Part shown: positions 1 through 57,898 of the stretch, one piece after another
Position numbering within the stretch: position 1 is the first letter of the stretch
Layout: each line of letters starts with the position of its first letter
From: Bacteroidota bacterium
GTDB lineage: Bacteria; Bacteroidota; Bacteroidia; Bacteroidales; JAAAOM01
Assembly (NCBI GenBank): GCA_009908855.1
Contig: JAAAOM010000011.1
Span: 52,974-116,973, forward strand
DNA: 64,000 bases
Direction: 5' to 3'
Notes under the pieces: model-generated
Told to the model about the DNA's origin: nothing
What the model saw: only the letters and a program-made list of their open reading frames with translations
Database searches by the model: none
Program-made: the position numbers and the translations under genes

Positions 1-849
1 CACAAAAAAACTACCTGAGAACTGTAGCAGGTAAAAAACAGATGAAACATAGTCAAGCAATATCCTTTGCAGGATCGTTCTTCTAAATTTTTTATCAGGA
101 AGATTCTTATAGAGCATGTAAAGACTGTTACGGTAGTTATAGTATAGTTTGCGCGGATTGTTATTAGGCAATGTTCCCCCGCCGACATGGAATACTTCCA
201 CCGATGGTATAACAACAATATGGTAACCTTTATTCTGAAGTCGCCAGCAAACGTCTATTTCCTCCATGTGTACGAAAAAATCTTCATCCAGTCCGCCAAT
301 TTCAAAATAGGCACTACTTCGCACAAACATACAGGCACCTGAAGCCCAGAAAATATAACTTTTATTGTTGTATTGGCCCTGGTCTGTTTCAATGGTTTTT
401 AAAATCCGACCCCGGCAGAACGGATATCCGTATTTATCAATATAACCACCGGCGGCACCGGCATATTCAAAGCTGTTTTTTTGATTGTATGCTTTGATTT
501 TTGGCATGCATGCAGCTACTTTCGGATGGCCATCCATAAATTTAACAATCGGCTTGAGCCAACCATCAGTTACTTCAATGTCTGAATTGAGCAAGACAAA
601 ATATTCGGCCTCAATTTGTTTTAGTGAGCGGGCATATCCTCCGGCATATCCATAATTATTGTCTAATTCAATAATTCTGACTGTGGGAAAATTGGATTGT
701 AAAAACCGAACCGAATCATCGGTAGAGGCATTATCTGCTACAATAACGGAGACGCCCGGCATATCAGAATTTGAGATAACCGATGGGAGGAATTTTTCGA
801 GATAGGATTTCCCGTTCCAATTGAGGATAACGATGGCAATTTTTATCAT
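1..849 (-). CDS. Glycosyltransferase family 2 protein (C-terminal end lies beyond the window edge)
   Basis: Absent from the ORF track because there is no stop in the window. Manual translation from ATG at 849 gives MIKIAIVILNWNGKSYLEKFLPSVISNSDMPGVSVIVADNASTDDSVRFLQS...LDNNYGYAGGYA, a classic GT2 N-terminus. The frame stays open to base 1. ATGA start/stop overlap with the upstream acyltransferase gene. Confidence 0.8.
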   Translation of the reverse strand, partial: MIKIAIVILNWNGKSYLEKFLPSVISNSDMPGVSVIVADNASTDDSVRFLQSNFPTVRIIELDNNYGYAGGYARSLKQIEAEYFVLLNSDIEVTDGWLKPIVKFMDGHPKVAACMPKIKAYNQKNSFEYAGAAGGYIDKYGYPFCRGRILKTIETDQGQYNNKSYIFWASGACMFVRSSAYFEIGGLDEDFFVHMEEIDVCWRLQNKGYHIVVIPSVEVFHVGGGTLPNNNPRKLYYNYRNSLYMLYKNLPDKKFRRTILQRILLDYVSSVFYLLQFSGSFFV

Positions 850-22438: not shown

Positions 22439-24430
22439 TTAAGTATTTAAGCTTTTACCCAATATTTCGGTTACATCATCCTCTAAAAGCACTTCATTTT
22501 CAAGCAGGCGATTGGCCATTTGATCCAGTTTATCTTTGTGCTTTTCAAGCATTTCACGTGTTTCATTATAACAATCGTTAATGATACCCTGGGCTTCGGC
22601 ATCAATTACCTGCTCGGTTTTTTCAGATCGCTTATCTACCATTAACTGATTGCCCAGCATTTCATTTTGGTTTTGCTTTTTAAATGATACGTTGGGCAGT
22701 TTTTTGCTCATGCCATATAATGTAACCATGTTGTAAGCCATCTGGGTCACCTTTTCCAGGTCGTTTGCCGCCCCGGTTGATATATCCCCGAAAATAAGAT
22801 CCTCAGCTGCTCGTCCGCCTAGCAATCCTTTGATCTTGCCCCGGATTTCTTTTTCAGACATTAAAAACCGGTCTTCCAGGGGTGTTTGCATGGTAAAACC
22901 TAAAGCGGCAACCCCCCTGGGCACGATGGATACTTTTTGTACCGGGTCAGCGCCCGGGGTATAATGCCCCACAATGGCATGGCCTGATTCGTGGTAGGCC
23001 ACAATTTTTCGTTCTTTTTCGTTGATCAGGCGGTTTTTCTTTTCCAAGCCGGCAACAATGCGCTCAATAGCTTCCTGTAAATCGGACAATTCAACTTCGT
23101 TTTTGTCCTTTCGTGAAGCCCATAAGGCGGCTTCGTTACAGATATTGGCCAGGTCGGCGCCCGAGAAACCGGCTGTATTGGCAGCTATTTTATGCAGGTC
23201 TTCTTCATTGGCCAGCTTGATATCTTTGGTATGTAGCTTAAGGATATCGTAGCGGCCTTTTTTATCCGGGCGGTCAACCATTACCTGTCGGTCAAAACGG
23301 CCGGGCCGCAGCAGTGCTTTATCCAATACTTCCGGCCTGTTGGTGGATGCCATAACAATGATGGTATCGTTGGCGGTAAAACCATCCATTTCAGATAGCA
23401 GTTGATTTAATGTATTTTCACGTTCATCATTGGCGCCCATTTGTACATTTTGTCCGCGACTTTTACCTATGGCATCCAACTCATCGATAAAAATGATACA
23501 AGGTTGTTTGCTTTTGGCCTGCTTAAAGAGATCGCGCACGCGTGATGCACCTACACCGACAAACATCTCAATAAATTCAGAGCCGGTAAGGCTAAAAAAG
23601 GGCACATCGGCTTCACCGGCTACAGCCCTGGCCAGCAATGTTTTTCCTGTACCCGGAGGGCCAATCAGTACGACTCCTTTTGGTAATTTGCCGCCCAGTC
23701 GGGTAAATTTTTCAGGTGTACGCAGAAATTCAATCATTTCCTTCAATTCTTCTTTGGCTTCATCTACCCCGGCAACGTCTTTAAAGGTAACATCGTTTTC
23801 CTTGCTTTTAACATGCATTTGGGCTTTGCTTTTTCCAATATTAAAGGGGTTTTGCATACCTCCGGCTCCCCCGCCCATTGTTTTACTCATGCGACGAATA
23901 ATGAAAGCCCATATCAGAATGAAAAACAAAATAGGAATGATCCATCCCAGTGCTTCACGCCAAAAGGTGTTTTCCACACGGCCTTCATAGTTAACATTGT
24001 ATCTTTCAAGCTGATGGATTAAGCTGTCATCCTGCACACGAACGGTTACAAAATCATAACCTTCACCACCGGAGGCCTTTTGACGTATGCTTTCAATTTT
24101 AGGCATTGTGTCGGGTTGCGGCATACCACGGGTATCAAATCGTTGATATCGTCCCATGATTTCATTTTTTCCGATACTCACTTTTTCGATGGCACCAGAT
24201 TTCAGCGTGTCTTTAAAAGTCTTATAACTTATTTCATTGGTTTGCTTAGGATAAAAAAACCATTGTATAACTATGAAAACACCTATGAATGCAAGATAAT
24301 GCCAGATTTTTATCCGTGGCCCCCTGCCTGGTTCCTGGTTTAAATAATCATTACCAGTGTTTTGTTGGTCTTGCTGTTGCTTGTTGTTCTGTTGATCTTG
24401 TTGCTTTTGTTGCTTTTGTTGCTTTGCCAT
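22439..24430 (-). CDS. ftsH: ATP-dependent zinc metalloprotease FtsH
   Basis: 663 aa. Walker A GPPGTGKT, Walker B IIFIDELD, an SRH region and the HESGHA zinc motif. Unusual Q/K-rich N-terminal tail. Confidence 0.95.
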
Positions 24431-54594: not shown

Positions 54595-54935
54595 GAAATA
54601 ATCGTGTATCTTCTTTTCAATAAAAATTATTACAAAAATAATGTAAAGTTGGTGGCCATGGTCAGGTGTTAATAAAACTTTATGAACAGATGGTTGGGTA
54701 AACGATCATTATGCATCGATCCATAGTCACTTTCTGGTTTTATGGCTTCTTTTGCGTGTCGCAATTTCAATATAATTCCTGTTAATCATAGAAAAATATA
54801 ACCCAAGATTGGTTTTGTTAACAGTCCAAAAACAATAAACGTTTGAAGTAACCATAAAGTTTGAATAAATTTGACTGAATTTTTGATATGTCTAAGTTTC
54901 GATGTAAAATTGTTAAAAATAAATTCCAAAAAATC

Positions 54936-55517
54936 ATGAAAAAAATACTCAGTCTTTCTCTGGTCGTGCTAATGATGGCAGGATGTTATAATTCCCGTAA
55001 GGTTTCACGGGTGGATCCGGATAAAACAATTGATTTAAGTGGTCGCTGGAATGATACCGATTCTCGTTTGGTAGCCGAAGAAATGGTGCGTGATGGCTTG
55101 TCCCGACCGTGGTTGGAGCGATTTACCGAAAAAGCTGGTGAACGTCCGGTTGTAATTGTGGGGGATATTAAGAACAAGACAAGCGAACATATCAGTACCG
55201 AAACATTTATTAACGATATCGAAAGGGAATTTATAAATTCCGGTCAGGTACGTGTTGTTCAGGGTGGTGAAGACCGCGAGCAGATGCGGCAGGAACGTGC
55301 CGATCAGCAGGAGTATGCGTCTCAGCAAACTATGAACCAGTGGGGGCGAGAAATGGGCGCTGATTTTATGATGACTGGTTCGGTAAATTCGGTAACTGAT
55401 CAGTATGGAAAAGATAAGGTGGTGCTCTACCAGGTCGATCTTGAGCTATCCGATTTGGAGACCAATGAAAAAGTGTGGATTGGAAATAAGAAGATTAAAA
55501 AGACTATTCAGGATTAG
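54936..55517 (+). CDS. lpoB: LpoB-like lipoprotein (penicillin-binding protein activator family)
   Basis: Start at ATG 54936 gives the signal peptide MKKILSLSLVVLMMAGC. The pattern W..TDS..VAEEMV...VVIVGDIKNKT...ADFMMTG...L.L.D.ET.E.VW matches the LpoB fold family as I remember it. Confidence 0.65.
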   Translation: MKKILSLSLVVLMMAGCYNSRKVSRVDPDKTIDLSGRWNDTDSRLVAEEMVRDGLSRPWLERFTEKAGERPVVIVGDIKNKTSEHISTETFINDIEREFINSGQVRVVQGGEDREQMRQERADQQEYASQQTMNQWGREMGADFMMTGSVNSVTDQYGKDKVVLYQVDLELSDLETNEKVWIGNKKIKKTIQD

Positions 55518-55533
55518 TGTGGTGAGAAGGGGG

Positions 55534-55967
55534 AGTGGGGAGTGAGGAGTGGACAGTGGGCAGTAAGCAGTAAGCAGTAAGCAGTGAACAGTAAGTAGTG
55601 GGGAGTGAGGAGTGTACAGTAAGTAGTGAACAGTAAGTAGTGGGCAGTGAGGAGTGGACAGTAAGTAGTGAACAGTGAGCAGTAAACAGTAAGTAGTGGG
55701 GAGTGAGGAGTGTACAGTAAGTAGTGAACAGTAAGTAGTGGGCAGTGGGCAGTAAACAGTAAGTAGTGGACAGTGAGCAGTAAACAGTAAGTAGTGAGCA
55801 GTGGGCAGTAAATAGTGAACAGTGAACAGTAAGTAGTGAACAGTAAGTAGTGAACAGTGGGCAGTAAACAGTGAGGAGTGGACAGTAAGTAGTGAACAGT
55901 GAGCAGTGGGCAGTAAATAGTGAACAGTAAGTAGTGAACAGTGTACAGTAAATTGTGATCAGTATGG
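55534..55967 (+). repeat. Tandem heptanucleotide array, 62 units of AGTRRRN, strictly in phase
   Basis: Counted by hand: 434 bp = 62 x 7 with no indel, and 60/62 units start with AGT. Unit counts are AGTAAGT x13, AGTGAAC x11, AGTGGGC x7, AGTGAGG x5; AGTAAAC, AGTGAGC and AGTGGAC x4 each; AGTGGGG, AGTGTAC, AGTAAGC and AGTAAAT x3 each. 16 nt of degenerate repeat precede it (55518-55533). The last unit, AGTATGG, holds the downstream ATG. Confidence 0.97.
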
Positions 55968-56368
55968 AAAAGAAATTGGGTTATGCGGGTAGTTTTAAGG
56001 AATTGGAAGTGTATAAGCAGACACGGGAATTGGCGAGGATTATTTTTGAATTGACAAAGACTTTTCCTAAAGAGGAGAAATACTCACTGACTGATCAGAT
56101 AAGAAGATCCTCACGTTCAGTTGGAGCACAGATTGCTGAAAGTTGGGGTAAAAGAAGGTATGAGAAACACTTTATTTCAAAAATGACTGATGCGGATGCT
56201 GAACAATACGAAACGCAACATTGGATAGAGGTAGCTTACGAAAACCGGTATATTGATCAAAATACAAAGCTGGAATTAATTGATAAGTGTGAAGGGATTG
56301 GAAAAATGATTGGATCAATAATCGATAAATCTTTTCAATTCTGTAAGAAGTATAAAACTGTCTCATGA
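55964..56368 (+). CDS. Four-helix-bundle protein (23S rRNA intervening-sequence protein family; DGR Avd-like)
   Basis: 134 aa from ATG 55964. F.ELEVYKQ...LA..I...T..FPKEEKYSLTDQIRRSSRSVGAQIAE.W.... and E.Q.WIE.A is the hallmark pattern of this family. Confidence 0.88.
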   Translation: MEKKLGYAGSFKELEVYKQTRELARIIFELTKTFPKEEKYSLTDQIRRSSRSVGAQIAESWGKRRYEKHFISKMTDADAEQYETQHWIEVAYENRYIDQNTKLELIDKCEGIGKMIGSIIDKSFQFCKKYKTVS

Positions 56369-56488
56369 TCCTGAACATCAATGTACCTGGTAAAAATATT
56401 CCACTCAACGGTCATGGCTTATTGCTCACTTTTACTATTTACCTCAATTAAGAAACATCATGTTAATGTATACGCAAAACACATATAA

Positions 56489-57898
56489 ATGCTGAAATCC
56501 CATACCATCAAACTAGTTTTTCTTTGGGTTTTATTGTTCGTAGTTTTTGGTTGTGCGACTTATTACACCAAAAATCTGGAGTTCCAACAGCAGTTTGCCA
56601 CTGGTAATATTGAAGAAGCCGATAATACTCTCGAGAAACTGGAGAAAAAGGTAAAAGACAAAGATCGGATTTTGTATTACCTTAAAAAAGGAGTGGTGGA
56701 GCAAATGCTGGGTAATTACGAGAAGAGCAATGAGGTTTTTGAACAAGCCTATTTTTATTTTGAGGACTACCGAAAAAAGCTGGCTACGGAAGCCTTGAGC
56801 TTAATCACCAATCCGGCCATAAAACCATACAAGGGAGAAGATCACGAAATTGTACTTCTTCATTATTATAAATCCATCAACTTTATTATGATGGGTCGGT
56901 ATGACGATGCCCTTGTTGAGTGTCGTCGTCTGAATAACAAACTCAATGCGTTGCAGGACAGGTATGAATATAAGAATTATCGTTATAAATCTGATGCCTT
57001 TGTCAATAACCTTATGGGTATCATCTACGAGGCTAACCGTGATGTTAACAATGCCTTTATAGCTTACCGGAATGCTTACAATACATACAAAAATGTGTAT
57101 GCCCCCAATTATAACGTATCGGTTCCACACCAGTTAAAAGAGGATTTATTACGAACGGCCTATCTCAATGGATTCAGAGAAGAGCTGCGCCAGTATGAGA
57201 AAGCGTTCAGCATGAACTATGAACCGCCGGAAAATAAAAACACGGGAGATTTTGTGTTTTTTTGGCACAATGGACTTGGACCGGTTAAAGATGAATGGAG
57301 TATTAATTTTGCCATCCAGCGTGGACAGGGTGGAACGGTAATGTTTGTAAACGATGAGCTCGGATTAAGTTTCCCGTTTGTGCTTTCAGGTGATGGTAGC
57401 GGATCGTTAAGTGATTTGAAATTTATAAGGGTAGCATTTCCTAAATATGTTGAGCGCAAACCGATCTTTAATAGCGCCTATCTCAATATCGACAATAAAA
57501 AGGTACAATTGGACAGGGCGCAGGATATAAATCAGATCGCCTTTAAATCACTTGAGGACCGAATGTTGCGTGAGTTAGGAACATCATTGTTACGCCTGGC
57601 CCTAAAACAGGCTGCTGAGGCTCAGGTGCGAAAAGAAAATCAAAACCTCGGAATGTTGGTATCAATCATGAATGCAGTAACCGAAAAAGCCGATACCAGA
57701 AACTGGCAGACATTACCTTATTCAATATGGTACACAAGGATTCGATTACCAGAAGGCGACCACAGGGTGCGATTGAATACGCGCGAACCCGGTCAGGTGA
57801 ATGAGGCAGCCAATTTGAATGTAAATATTCGCAACAACCATACTACATTTTATTTATACCATAGCCTGGAAAGCTATGCACCCAATATTTCTCAGTAA
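56489..57898 (+). CDS. Large TPR-like lipoprotein (hypothetical; likely functional partner of the LpoB-like gene)
   Basis: 469 aa. Lipobox VVFGC and N-terminal TPR-like helices (LYYLKKGVVEQMLGNYEKSNEVFEQA). Confidence 0.75.
   Translation: MLKSHTIKLVFLWVLLFVVFGCATYYTKNLEFQQQFATGNIEEADNTLEKLEKKVKDKDRILYYLKKGVVEQMLGNYEKSNEVFEQAYFYFEDYRKKLATEALSLITNPAIKPYKGEDHEIVLLHYYKSINFIMMGRYDDALVECRRLNNKLNALQDRYEYKNYRYKSDAFVNNLMGIIYEANRDVNNAFIAYRNAYNTYKNVYAPNYNVSVPHQLKEDLLRTAYLNGFREELRQYEKAFSMNYEPPENKNTGDFVFFWHNGLGPVKDEWSINFAIQRGQGGTVMFVNDELGLSFPFVLSGDGSGSLSDLKFIRVAFPKYVERKPIFNSAYLNIDNKKVQLDRAQDINQIAFKSLEDRMLRELGTSLLRLALKQAAEAQVRKENQNLGMLVSIMNAVTEKADTRNWQTLPYSIWYTRIRLPEGDHRVRLNTREPGQVNEAANLNVNIRNNHTTFYLYHSLESYAPNISQ

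Follow-up and report, generated by a model that had tools for sequence, protein, structure and literature searches.

The DNA analysed here is a stretch of 64,000 nucleotides (the window) from a metagenome-assembled genome of the Bacteroidota. It contains a four-helix-bundle (4HB) gene of the 23S rRNA intervening-sequence protein family (55964..56368, forward strand), which lies between two host genes of the same orientation. The upstream gene lpoB (54888..55517, forward strand) encodes the penicillin-binding-protein activator LpoB (PF13036, E = 9e-47; TIGR02722, 120.5 bits at a cut-off of 110.55). The downstream gene (56489..57898, forward strand) encodes a TPR lipoprotein, whose homologues are named 'COG3014 family protein'. 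A long array of heptanucleotide units (55534..55967) precedes the 4HB gene, and about six degenerate inverted heptads (56400..56446) follow it. Together they form a cassette of ~930 nt (55518..56446, right boundary approximate), which abuts the stop codon of lpoB.

As had been described in a first-pass annotation of this DNA, the TAG stop codon of lpoB (55515-55517) is followed by 16 nt of degenerate repeat (TGTGGTGAGAAGGGGG, 55518..55533); these are the first units of the 5′ arm. The claim of an array free of insertions and deletions was borne out: read as 7-mers, 55534-55967 consists of 62 units of the type AGTRRRN in a single phase. The last of them, AGTATGG, indeed contains the ATG (55964) of the 4HB gene. 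Positions 2 and 3 of the unit are G and T in 62 of 62 cases and position 1 is A in 61, so that 61 units start with AGT and not 60, as had been claimed. In the same way, 13 unit types were counted instead of 11; without the two odd units at the end, TGTGATC and AGTATGG, the lower number holds. The dominant units are AGTAAGT (13 copies) and AGTGAAC (11 copies), as stated before, and the two reported segmental duplications are exact (55590-55645 equals 55688-55743, and 55646-55680 equals 55870-55904). In addition to the period of 7, Tandem Repeats Finder reported higher-order periods of 28, 42, and 98, the last corresponding to 14 units (4.0 copies, 84% match). AGT recurs at a lag of 7 at 65 places in the window, 59 of which are inside the array, and no other period-7 tract was found in the 64 kb. 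The array is far beyond chance. Its G+C content is 0.46 compared to 0.39 for the window.

A coding repeat was rejected as a reading of the array because every sense frame contains 16-22 stop codons (antisense frames contain 0-1). A CRISPR was rejected as well, since the 7-nt units are contiguous and lack spacers, while CRISPR repeats measure ~24-48 nt. L001, an independent assembly of this organism from short reads, is interrupted within the array at 65 nt from the ATG; these 65 nt are identical in both assemblies, and the array is therefore regarded as real. The exact number of 62 units depends on one assembly.

The 4HB protein consists of 134 amino acids with a pI of 8.95. It matches the families PF05635 (23S_rRNA_IVP; E = 7e-32, 110.2 bits, cut-off 33.8) and TIGR02436 (E = 2.4e-30, 105 bits, cut-off 24), and has relatives of known structure in the PDB, namely 2GSC (XCC0516, 3e-8) and 2RLD (3e-7), so that the earlier assignment to the Avd/IVS family was correct. 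An alternative start codon GTG is located at 55955, but homologues begin with MEKK, which favours the ATG at 55964. The window protein contains the motif QIRRSSRSVGAQIAE, a block also seen in distant homologues. A conserved 4HB helix motif GxxRxxxSxxxNxxE has been described (Lin et al., 2006, as quoted in PMC3936711); compared with the form quoted there, R, S, and E occupy the expected positions, whereas Q replaces N and the first G. 2GSC and 2RLD have been solved as pentamers, and by sequence similarity the window protein may share their pentameric four-helix-bundle fold; binding of nucleic acids is what is usually guessed for such an Avd-like fold. The ORF is intact in 75 of 79 homologues, and a median dN/dS of 0.074 indicates strong purifying selection at the sequence level. 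A scan of viral contigs with the protein revealed no relatives.

The earlier description had overlooked the inverted heptads on the downstream side of the gene. The 3′ arm TCCACTC..GCTCACT TTTACT ATTTACC is the reverse complement of GAGTGGA, AGTGAGC, AGTAAA, and GGTAAAT. With this, the previously described pair of array and gene becomes a gene between inverted arms, as in 23S rRNA intervening sequences (IVSs).

The cassette is absent from the corresponding site in other genomes. The COG3014 gene is the usual immediate downstream partner of lpoB, and in five relatives the gap between the two measures 9 (L208), 13 (L227), 23 (L207), 25 (L209), and 26 nt (L228) compared to 971 nt in the window. 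The ~930-nt cassette is therefore an insertion, which bears out the earlier proposal that array and gene form one unit. No heptads were found at these five empty sites, hence the arms either came with the gene or grew afterwards. In the closest relative of the COG3014 gene (L226, 75% identical) the contig starts 47 nt before the gene; these 47 nt contain no heptads, which does not inform on the junction. The cassette has the same orientation as both host genes. An Rfam scan of 54800-57000 at E ≤ 1 gave no rRNA or other match, and no intrinsic terminator was predicted in the cassette. A sigma-70 promoter scan of the cassette showed no excess, with Bacteroidota promoters being outside the coverage of the tool. 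Neither a recombinase nor a reverse transcriptase nor a transposase was found among the ORFs within ±9 kb, and no target-site duplication is recognisable at the junctions.

The layout of a gene between inverted heptad arms recurs in nearly every relative examined. The upstream arm is almost always purine-rich, of the form (N-GT-RRR-N)n, and the downstream arm is its reverse complement. For 80 metagenomic 4HB homologues (50-78% identical) the arms were scored as at least four phased NGTNNNN units within 200 nt upstream and at least four NNNNACN units downstream. Upstream heptads are present at 65 of 71 loci (92%), compared to 10 of 629 control windows, and downstream complement units at 55 of 68 loci (81%), compared to 8 of 629, which further supports the view of one unit. 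The layout of the cassette was also found in other, independent insertion contexts, namely between genes for an ABC ATPase and FtsX (L002/L003) and for PfkB and an aldehyde dehydrogenase (L004-L006). The cassette is co-oriented with its upstream neighbour in 47 of 53 loci and with its downstream neighbour in 35 of 46. Tandem cassettes occur as well (L132, L133, L139), and solo, gene-less heptad hairpins share contigs and units with cassettes. A further apparent site, between a histidine kinase and a response regulator, was noticed by reading the upstream coding sequence only.

Expansion and contraction of the array between strains, for which the first-pass annotation had proposed a comparison, was seen directly. 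L002 and L003 carry 10 and 13 units with 100% identical flanks, and L004 and L005 carry 27 and 28 units with 99.6% identical flanks. Furthermore, the unit sequences differ among close protein homologues, even at one orthologous site (GGTAAAA, GGTAATC, GGTGTAA).

The complementarity of the arms is locus-specific, and the arms co-vary within a locus. At the homologue loci, the duplex of a locus' own 5′ and 3′ arms has an energy of −52.5 kcal/mol compared to −41.0 ± 1.2 kcal/mol for permuted partners (0 of 20,000 permutations), and the cosine of the 5′ and 3′ unit spectra is 0.40 for own and 0.18 for cross pairs (0 of 10,000). Minimum free energy (MFE) folds contain a median of 59.5 long-range arm-arm pairs, compared to 24.5 with a shuffled and 28.5 with a reversed 3′ flank, and at least 40 such pairs are formed in 43 of 62 loci compared to 15 of 62 controls. 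In the window, 59 pairs connect 55511-55615 with 56396-56469 in the MFE as well as the centroid fold, and the degenerate units at 55518-55533 take part in the long-range stem of the MFE fold. The best 49-nt duplex of array and 3′ arm has −41.8 kcal/mol compared to −30.7 ± 3.8 kcal/mol for a shuffled 3′ segment (~3 SD), and many registers are possible. When the whole array is paired with the downstream 120 nt, the duplex (−62.1 kcal/mol) exceeds shuffles by only ~2 SD in stability, a value also reached by 12% of random window segments. For the overall 991-nt fold no gain in stability over shuffles was seen (z = 0.47), a comparison that is uninformative at this length. Finally, arm duplexes in sense and antisense orientation, compared as a G-U test for RNA-level selection, are about equally stable (−54.4 and −53.4, p = 0.23), which is compatible with RNA-level selection and DNA-level inverted repeats alike.

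Similar arms were identified around more distant members of the family. Cyanobacterial plasmid 4HB genes (28-57% identical) have clear inverted heptad arms in 10 of 12 cases inspected, with units different from those of the window (e.g., GCAGGGG/CCCCTGC, GGCAGAA/CCTTCTG, AGGGTGT/ACACCCT); the cyanobacterial gene in L054 is without heptads. The Azospirillum locus L215 is a genuine 23S rRNA IVS with arms of CAGAGGA/CGGAGGA on both sides. At L212 the gene is flanked on each side by purine-rich arrays, and in L216 the arrays on both sides are direct, not inverted. Heptad arms were not found at two inspected phage DGR Avd genes. A published precedent is the 23S IVS of Coxiella, in which a 4HB ORF lies inside a stem of terminal inverted repeats (Warrier et al., 2016, PMC4990558). 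Two to three tandem GACAGAT heptamers, plus one degenerate copy, are located directly before its ATG, with a copy number that depends on the strain, and the first repeat is the site of RNase III cleavage (PMC4990558). The earlier statement that no function had been described for such a pairing overlooks these heptamers and the RNase III cut (PMC4990558).

Viewed from the side of the repeats, the picture is different. Among AGTRRRN arrays from many phyla, 0 of 125 adjoin a 4HB gene, and a 4HB gene lies within 8 kb at 1 of 120 loci. By the first-pass annotation, arrays that occur just as often away from 4HB genes would refute its proposal, and at large scale most AGTRRRN arrays indeed lie away from them. 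The proposed adjacency thus holds from the gene side (92% and 81% compared to ~1.5% in controls) but not from the array side. An HMM search of six-frame ORFs, its reach validated on 4HB homologues of 28-50% identity, found no 4HB genes or remnants beside or inside the 125 arrays, nor did tblastn with a panel of 14 4HB proteins. An inverted partner is located within 400 nt on the 3′ side of 30 of the 125 arrays, and within 200 nt on the 5′ side of none.

Taken together, the array is probably the hyper-expanded 5′ arm of an IVS-type selfish cassette, with the two arms forming a processing stem. The cassette would be transcribed by read-through from the host operon, and the arms would then pair into a long stem. 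Since tandem repeats offer many registers for pairing, such a stem would tolerate register shifts, and arms of unequal length would not matter. By analogy with the 23S rRNA IVSs, the stem may be cut by RNase III. Cleavage would free the cassette RNA and part the host cistrons on its two sides, and the insertion would thereby be tolerated. Slippage during replication, together with unequal recombination of blocks of several units, may have produced the 62 units, and the 3′ arm would have decayed to about six units. Several points count against the IVS-type reading. The 3′ arm in the window is short and degenerate, its duplexes with the array exceed shuffles by only ~2-3 SD, sense and antisense arm duplexes are equally stable, L216, L212, and L054 depart from the layout, no recombinase, reverse transcriptase or transposase lies within ±9 kb, and slippage alone leaves the constant period of seven unexplained.

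This constant period, which needs something beyond slippage, can also be read as a binding register. In that case the pentameric 4HB protein would bind the heptads of its own arms, as DNA or RNA, for autoregulation, packaging or mobilisation. In favour of this, the protein is conserved (dN/dS 0.07) and mildly basic, contains an invariant R/S-rich helix (QIRRSS.S), and has relatives that form pentameric rings (2GSC; PMC4990558). Gene and arms co-occur across the non-DGR family, although the unit sequences differ by lineage, and the gene-less hairpins on cassette contigs use the units of the cassette arms, which would fit an action in trans. The variation of the units among close homologues, even at one site, argues against sequence-specific recognition and disfavours the binding platform suggested earlier, as do the 125 arrays without an adjoining 4HB gene; overall we consider such binding unlikely. 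The protein might instead act more generally, non-DGR PF05635 proteins being the trans-acting partner that generates, spreads, maintains or processes heptad arrays and hairpins. The gene-bearing cassette would then be the autonomous form, the gene-less hairpins would be non-autonomous derivatives or targets, and the 7-nt period would come from the mechanism of the protein and not from slippage. This idea is tentative and in our judgement doubtful. If true, it would cover STRR elements (cyanobacterial heptanucleotide repeats) as well as long simple sequence repeats (SSRs) of cyanobacterial, Bacteroidota, Xanthomonas, acidobacterial, and other genomes.

The equal complementarity of the arms on both strands is also what a DNA-level element would show, in which inverted arrays form hairpins or cruciforms for recombination or transposition in trans, comparable to REP/RAYT or integron attC, and the 4HB ORF is either carried in the loop as cargo or enters heptad hairpins that were already present. 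Gene-less hairpins are common and always have one configuration, solo hairpins with the same units occur on cassette contigs, tandem cassettes exist, and 70 convergent GGGAATC pairs are known from Xanthomonas (PMC4692102). Against this stand the missing recombinase in or near the cassette (±9 kb), the window junctions without a recognisable target-site duplication, the five empty lpoB/COG3014 sites without heptads, and the solo hairpin loops without 4HB remnants, which together leave this reading with a rather small probability. It is most improbable that the array is a functionless, hypermutable SSR, grown by slippage beside a chance intergenic gene. Unit number and order do change between otherwise identical strains, the unit sequence is not conserved, and among the long SSRs of bacteria heptamers are quoted as the commonest and most over-represented class, with slippage given as the cause (Mrazek et al., 2007, cited in PMC4679880 and PMC4692102). 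This reading is already disfavoured by the association with the gene (92% and 81% compared to ~1.5%), the matching inverted downstream arm with own-versus-permuted duplex energies and unit spectra that show locus-specific co-variation, the single arm configuration allowed, and the same architecture in distant lineages with unrelated units.

The IVS-type cassette ties together two long-standing orphans, the bacterial heptanucleotide repeats and the 23S-IVS/4HB proteins. Heptanucleotide tandem repeats have been noted in cyanobacteria since 1990, and we know of no accepted function for them. The 4HB proteins are annotated by the thousand, to our knowledge without a known function. A general link between heptad arrays and 4HB genes was not found stated in the searchable literature, the sole precedent being the Coxiella IVS with its 3-4 heptamers. 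Inverted heptad arms around 4HB genes are found in every non-DGR lineage sampled, both in mRNA operons and within rRNA, and a testable model can be offered, in which an IVS-like stem is processed by RNase III and the protein possibly acts on the heptads. An inserted cassette with arms explains that 4HB genes turn up in unrelated operons, including cas operons (L216, L223). 4HB genes in cas operons have been read as cas-associated. Short-read assemblies break at 4HB genes because of the adjacent arrays, and for annotators such intergenic arrays belong to an inserted element.

Canonical STRR elements of heterocystous cyanobacteria consist of the units CCCCAGT, TTGGTCA, and CAACAGT, and were reportedly described by Mazel and co-workers in 1990. 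The window array, located in a Bacteroidota MAG and composed of AGTAAGT, AGTGAAC, and other units, is not a canonical STRR. It has, however, the features of heptanucleotide SSRs in general, i.e., tandem intergenic units and copy numbers that change in steps of 7 nt. Like the window array, the known examples (STRR; GGGAATC/GGGGAYT of Xanthomonas and Nostoc, PMC4692102; TAACTGA, PMC4679880) are intergenic tandem 7-nt units, often lie between co-oriented genes, begin at the stop codon of the upstream gene or shortly behind it, vary in length between strains in 7-nt steps, and frequently form convergent inverted pairs. Their unit sequences differ, and 4HB genes are missing from the neighbourhood of most such arrays; neither PMC4692102 nor PMC4679880 was found to mention S23 or four-helix proteins.

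REP/BIME and MITE-like palindromes are likewise intergenic inverted repeats inside operons with the capacity to form stem-loops, and the gene-less heptad hairpins look analogous to them. In the cassette, by contrast, the arms are tandem 7-nt arrays and not a unique palindrome, the loop contains a conserved ORF, and neither a target-site duplication nor a cognate transposase was found. In the cassette, inverted arms are the only feature of MITE or IS elements observed, with no junction duplication recognisable and no transposase within ±9 kb; a transposase acting in trans is a possibility. The DGR accessory protein Avd (bAvd, PF22296; NF033474) shares a homologous fold, and the window protein is a weak bAvd match (E = 1e-12). 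Its score for DivGenRetAVD (NF033474) is 40.5 bits compared to an equivalog cut-off of 80, and no reverse transcriptase lies within ±9 kb, on which grounds the reading as a DGR/Avd gene was rejected.

The closest known system is the IVS of 23S rRNA. IVSs with an S23p/4HB ORF are known from Leptospira, Coxiella burnetii, Brucella, and Xanthomonas, and IVSs carrying the S23p ORF were reportedly described by Ralph and McClelland in 1993. The same protein family (PF05635) is encoded in the loop, the ORF is enclosed by complementary arms (59 predicted pairs in the window, ~2-3 SD above shuffles) and is in sense to the host transcript. As in Coxiella, tandem heptamers of variable copy number abut the start codon, with 62 units in the window and different numbers in its relatives. 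In contrast to an IVS, the cassette is not inserted in a 23S rRNA helix (9, 25 or 45) but in the protein-coding operon lpoB-COG3014. Moreover, Coxiella has 3-4 heptamers compared to 62 here, where the arms are very unequal (62 and ~6 units), and its ORF is reported to be decaying and probably untranslated (PMC4990558), whereas the ORF family analysed here is under strong purifying selection. Excision by RNase III has been shown for the rRNA IVSs (PMC4990558), and by analogy the cassette in the lpoB-COG3014 operon may be processed in the same way.

The element between lpoB and the COG3014 gene (55518 to about 56446) is an inserted, promoter-less cassette, co-oriented with its neighbors, in which a gene for a four-helix-bundle protein under selection is enclosed by matched inverted heptad arms of hypervariable length. 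Its 5′ arm, located in a Bacteroidota metagenome-assembled genome, was cut into 7-mers and comprises 62 heptads in one phase from 55534 to 55967 with no indels, a unit number which rests on a single assembly, since a second, independent short-read assembly breaks within the array. Positions 2 and 3 are G and T in all 62 units, and position 1 is A in 61, where the first-pass annotation had counted 60 AGT-initial units. It had also listed 11 unit types, which is correct without the last two odd units, but the overall number is 13. The remaining details were reproduced: AGTAAGT (13 copies) and AGTGAAC (11 copies) are the commonest units, the two segmental duplications show no mismatch, the lpoB stop codon (55515-55517) is followed by 16 degenerate bases, and the last unit, AGTATGG, includes the ATG at 55964. 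A higher-order period of 98 nt, equal to 14 units, was detected with Tandem Repeats Finder (4 copies, 84% match). No period-7 structure was found elsewhere in the 64-kb window; an unrelated tandem repeat of period 9/27, with about 5 copies of TTGTTGCTT, is located at 24358-24430. Between 55518 and 55963, stop codons number 16-22 per sense frame and 0-1 in the antisense frames, so that translation leaving lpoB would be halted at once in all frames. Stops in all frames were likewise argued for TAACTGA repeats (MacGregor, 2015; PMC4679880).

The 134-residue ORF downstream of the array (55964-56368, forward strand) is a clear member of PF05635/TIGR02436, matches the models of the DGR accessory protein Avd weakly, and has solved-structure relatives in XCC0516 (2GSC) and 2RLD. 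About 30 nt past its stop codon, degenerate reverse-complement heptads form a 3′ arm (56400-56446), for example GCTCACT and TCCACTC, which are complementary to AGTGAGC and GAGTGGA, respectively. Array and gene had been taken as one unit, and this stands, but the second, inverted arm had been overlooked. In both predicted folds of 55500-56490, MFE and centroid, a long-range stem of 59 pairs (55511-55615 with 56396-56469) closes the array plus the ORF. The pairing of the window arms is modestly above chance (about 2-3 SD), and the case for paired arms therefore depends on related loci.

Five relatives with COG3014 proteins of 64-66% identity have a heptad-free gap of 9-26 nt between lpoB and the COG3014 gene, compared with 971 nt in the window. 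This indicates that array, gene and inverted arm came, or grew, as one block. Scans of this block gave no terminator, no promoter excess and no Rfam family. The genes within 9 kb on either side are housekeeping genes, and no reverse transcriptase, transposase or integrase was found among them.

The first homologues examined lie in unrelated contexts, one between genes for an ABC ATPase and an FtsX permease, the other between a PfkB kinase and an aldehyde dehydrogenase gene. Both show (GGTAAAA/AGTGAAC/AGTAAAC)n upstream and GTTCACT/TTTTACT downstream of the four-helix-bundle gene. The sample was extended to 80 metagenomic loci with encoded proteins 50-78% identical, for which the consensus heptad is RGTRAAC. 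At least four phased NGTNNNN units are present within 200 nt upstream in 65 of 71 loci (92%) vs. 10 of 629 control windows, and at least four NNNNACN units within 200 nt downstream in 55 of 68 (81%) vs. 8 of 629. The arms also match each other: the duplex with the own partner has -52.5 kcal/mol, compared with -41.0 ± 1.2 for permuted partners (0 of 20,000 permutations reach the observed value), and the cosine of the unit spectra is 0.40 for own vs. 0.18 for crossed arms (0 of 10,000). In MFE folds the flanks share a median of 59.5 bp, vs. 24.5 with the 3′ flank shuffled and 28.5 with it reversed.

Cassette and upstream gene share their orientation in 47 of 53 loci, cassette and downstream gene in 35 of 46, which fits read-through transcription. 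The arrays are hypervariable, as unit numbers of 10 vs. 13 were found with 100% identical flanks and of 27 vs. 28 with 99.6% identical flanks, unit order differing as well. The ORF is not decaying, as it is intact in 75 of 79 cases with a median dN/dS of 0.074. Tandem cassettes, with two four-helix-bundle genes each preceded by its own array, occur on the contigs L132 (1989-2827), L133 (1107-1960) and L139 (871-1865). Several diverged genomes (L002, L003, L132, L147, L154) carry a cassette at the site between the LolD/MacB-like ABC ATPase and the FtsX permease, with differing arm units (GGTAAAA, AGTAAAA, GGTAATC, GGTGTAA). This points to an ancient insertion with arms that change over time yet remain heptadic and matched. 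Many contigs of close homologues (e.g., L001, L006) have a length of just 0.5-2 kb, and in some cases they begin within the array. Short-read assemblies break at these cassettes, which MAGs probably under-represent.

A tblastn search of plasmids yielded 37 homologues from cyanobacteria and proteobacteria (28-57% identical), of which 13 were inspected. Inverted heptad arms are clear at 10 of the 12 cyanobacterial loci inspected, with very different sequences: GCAGGGG/CCCCTGC in Nostoc and Tolypothrix, GGCAGAA/CCTTCTG in Stanieria, AGGGTGT/ACACCCT in Calothrix and AAAGGGA/TCCCTTT in Geminocystis. In Brasilonema the array runs into the ATG, as in the window. Exceptions are L216 (630-1320), with direct arrays of CTAAAAG (18 copies) upstream and CCAAAAG (10 copies) downstream, L212, with purine-rich arrays on both sides, and L217, where an IS interrupts the left arm. 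Locus L215, on the Azospirillum lipoferum 4B plasmid AZO_p2 (13595-15530), is a genuine 23S rRNA IVS, with the ORF inside an apparent 23S rRNA gene and arms of CAGAGGA/CGGAGGA heptads and their complement; this ORF is unannotated, and the PLSDB table has no feature there. No heptad arms were found at a further cyanobacterial member (L054, 5536-5934, reverse strand), and no heptads at two phage DGR Avd genes used as negative control. Judged by these sequences, heptad arms are a trait of the whole family and not of a single clade. Heptad-flanked members also lie between cas genes on a Pseudanabaena plasmid (L216, cas6/cas4) and a Picosynechococcus plasmid (L223, cas10/cmr3). 23S_rRNA_IVP genes amid cas genes have been read as cas-associated (Zhang and Ye, 2013; PMC3936711), and the association is also listed in PMC10910872; it may reflect promiscuous operon insertion and not a cas function.

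The converse, that heptad arrays adjoin such genes, did not hold: in a scan for (AGTRRRN)x6 with one genome per species, the arrays among the matches listed are mostly gene-free. At least 120 loci were obtained from Bacteroidota, Cyanobacteria, Acidobacteriota, Planctomycetota, Verrucomicrobiota, Chloroflexota, Firmicutes and Proteobacteria. With an HMM that reaches homologues just 28% identical, one locus among the matches listed has the gene within 8 kb, namely L054, where AGTAGGG (8 copies, 1885-1925) lies 3.6 kb from the unarmed gene; tblastn detected no ORF remnants at the listed arrays. About a quarter of the listed arrays have their inverted complement 12-400 nt further on and make up heptad hairpins without a gene (e.g., L019, L031, L034, L044, L096, L116, L122). 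Among the matches listed, their sole configuration is a 5′ purine arm and a 3′ pyrimidine arm, the inverted partner being located 3′ (within 400 nt) for 30 arrays and 5′ (within 200 nt) for none. Solo hairpins share contigs and unit types with cassettes (L138, L179, L187, L197).

By analogy with rRNA IVSs, the cassette is probably IVS-like. The arms would pair within the host transcript into a stem tolerant of register shifts, and RNase III would cut this stem, freeing the cassette RNA without loss of function in the flanking cistrons. Slippage and unequal exchange would have expanded one arm to 62 units. Two points limit this reading: the sense/antisense arm test gave no RNA-specific signal, and slippage leaves the always-seven period unaccounted for. 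That the heptads instead form a binding platform for a protein seems unlikely, and a hairpin acting at the DNA level, as recombination substrate or target, is quite improbable. An array that is a functionless SSR is hardly credible.

Intergenic heptamer arrays, convergent pairs included, have been described as abundant, with no function given and no mention of the four-helix-bundle family (Rehm et al., 2015, PMC4692102; MacGregor, 2015). A full-text literature search, covering few subscription journals, returned no statement of a general link between heptad repeats and PF05635. With the window array as starting point, a family-wide association came to light that is apparently unreported. The first-pass pairing of array and gene persists as a two-armed, IVS-type cassette, but it has a small-scale precedent, and arrays mostly occur without the gene. 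This precedent is the 23S IVS of Coxiella, in which the four-helix-bundle (S23p) ORF lies in the loop of a 28-bp terminal-inverted-repeat stem that RNase III cleaves, and 2-3 (plus one degenerate) tandem GACAGAT heptamers, with strain-dependent copy number, abut the ATG (Warrier et al., 2016; PMC4990558). It represents the design of the window cassette in miniature.
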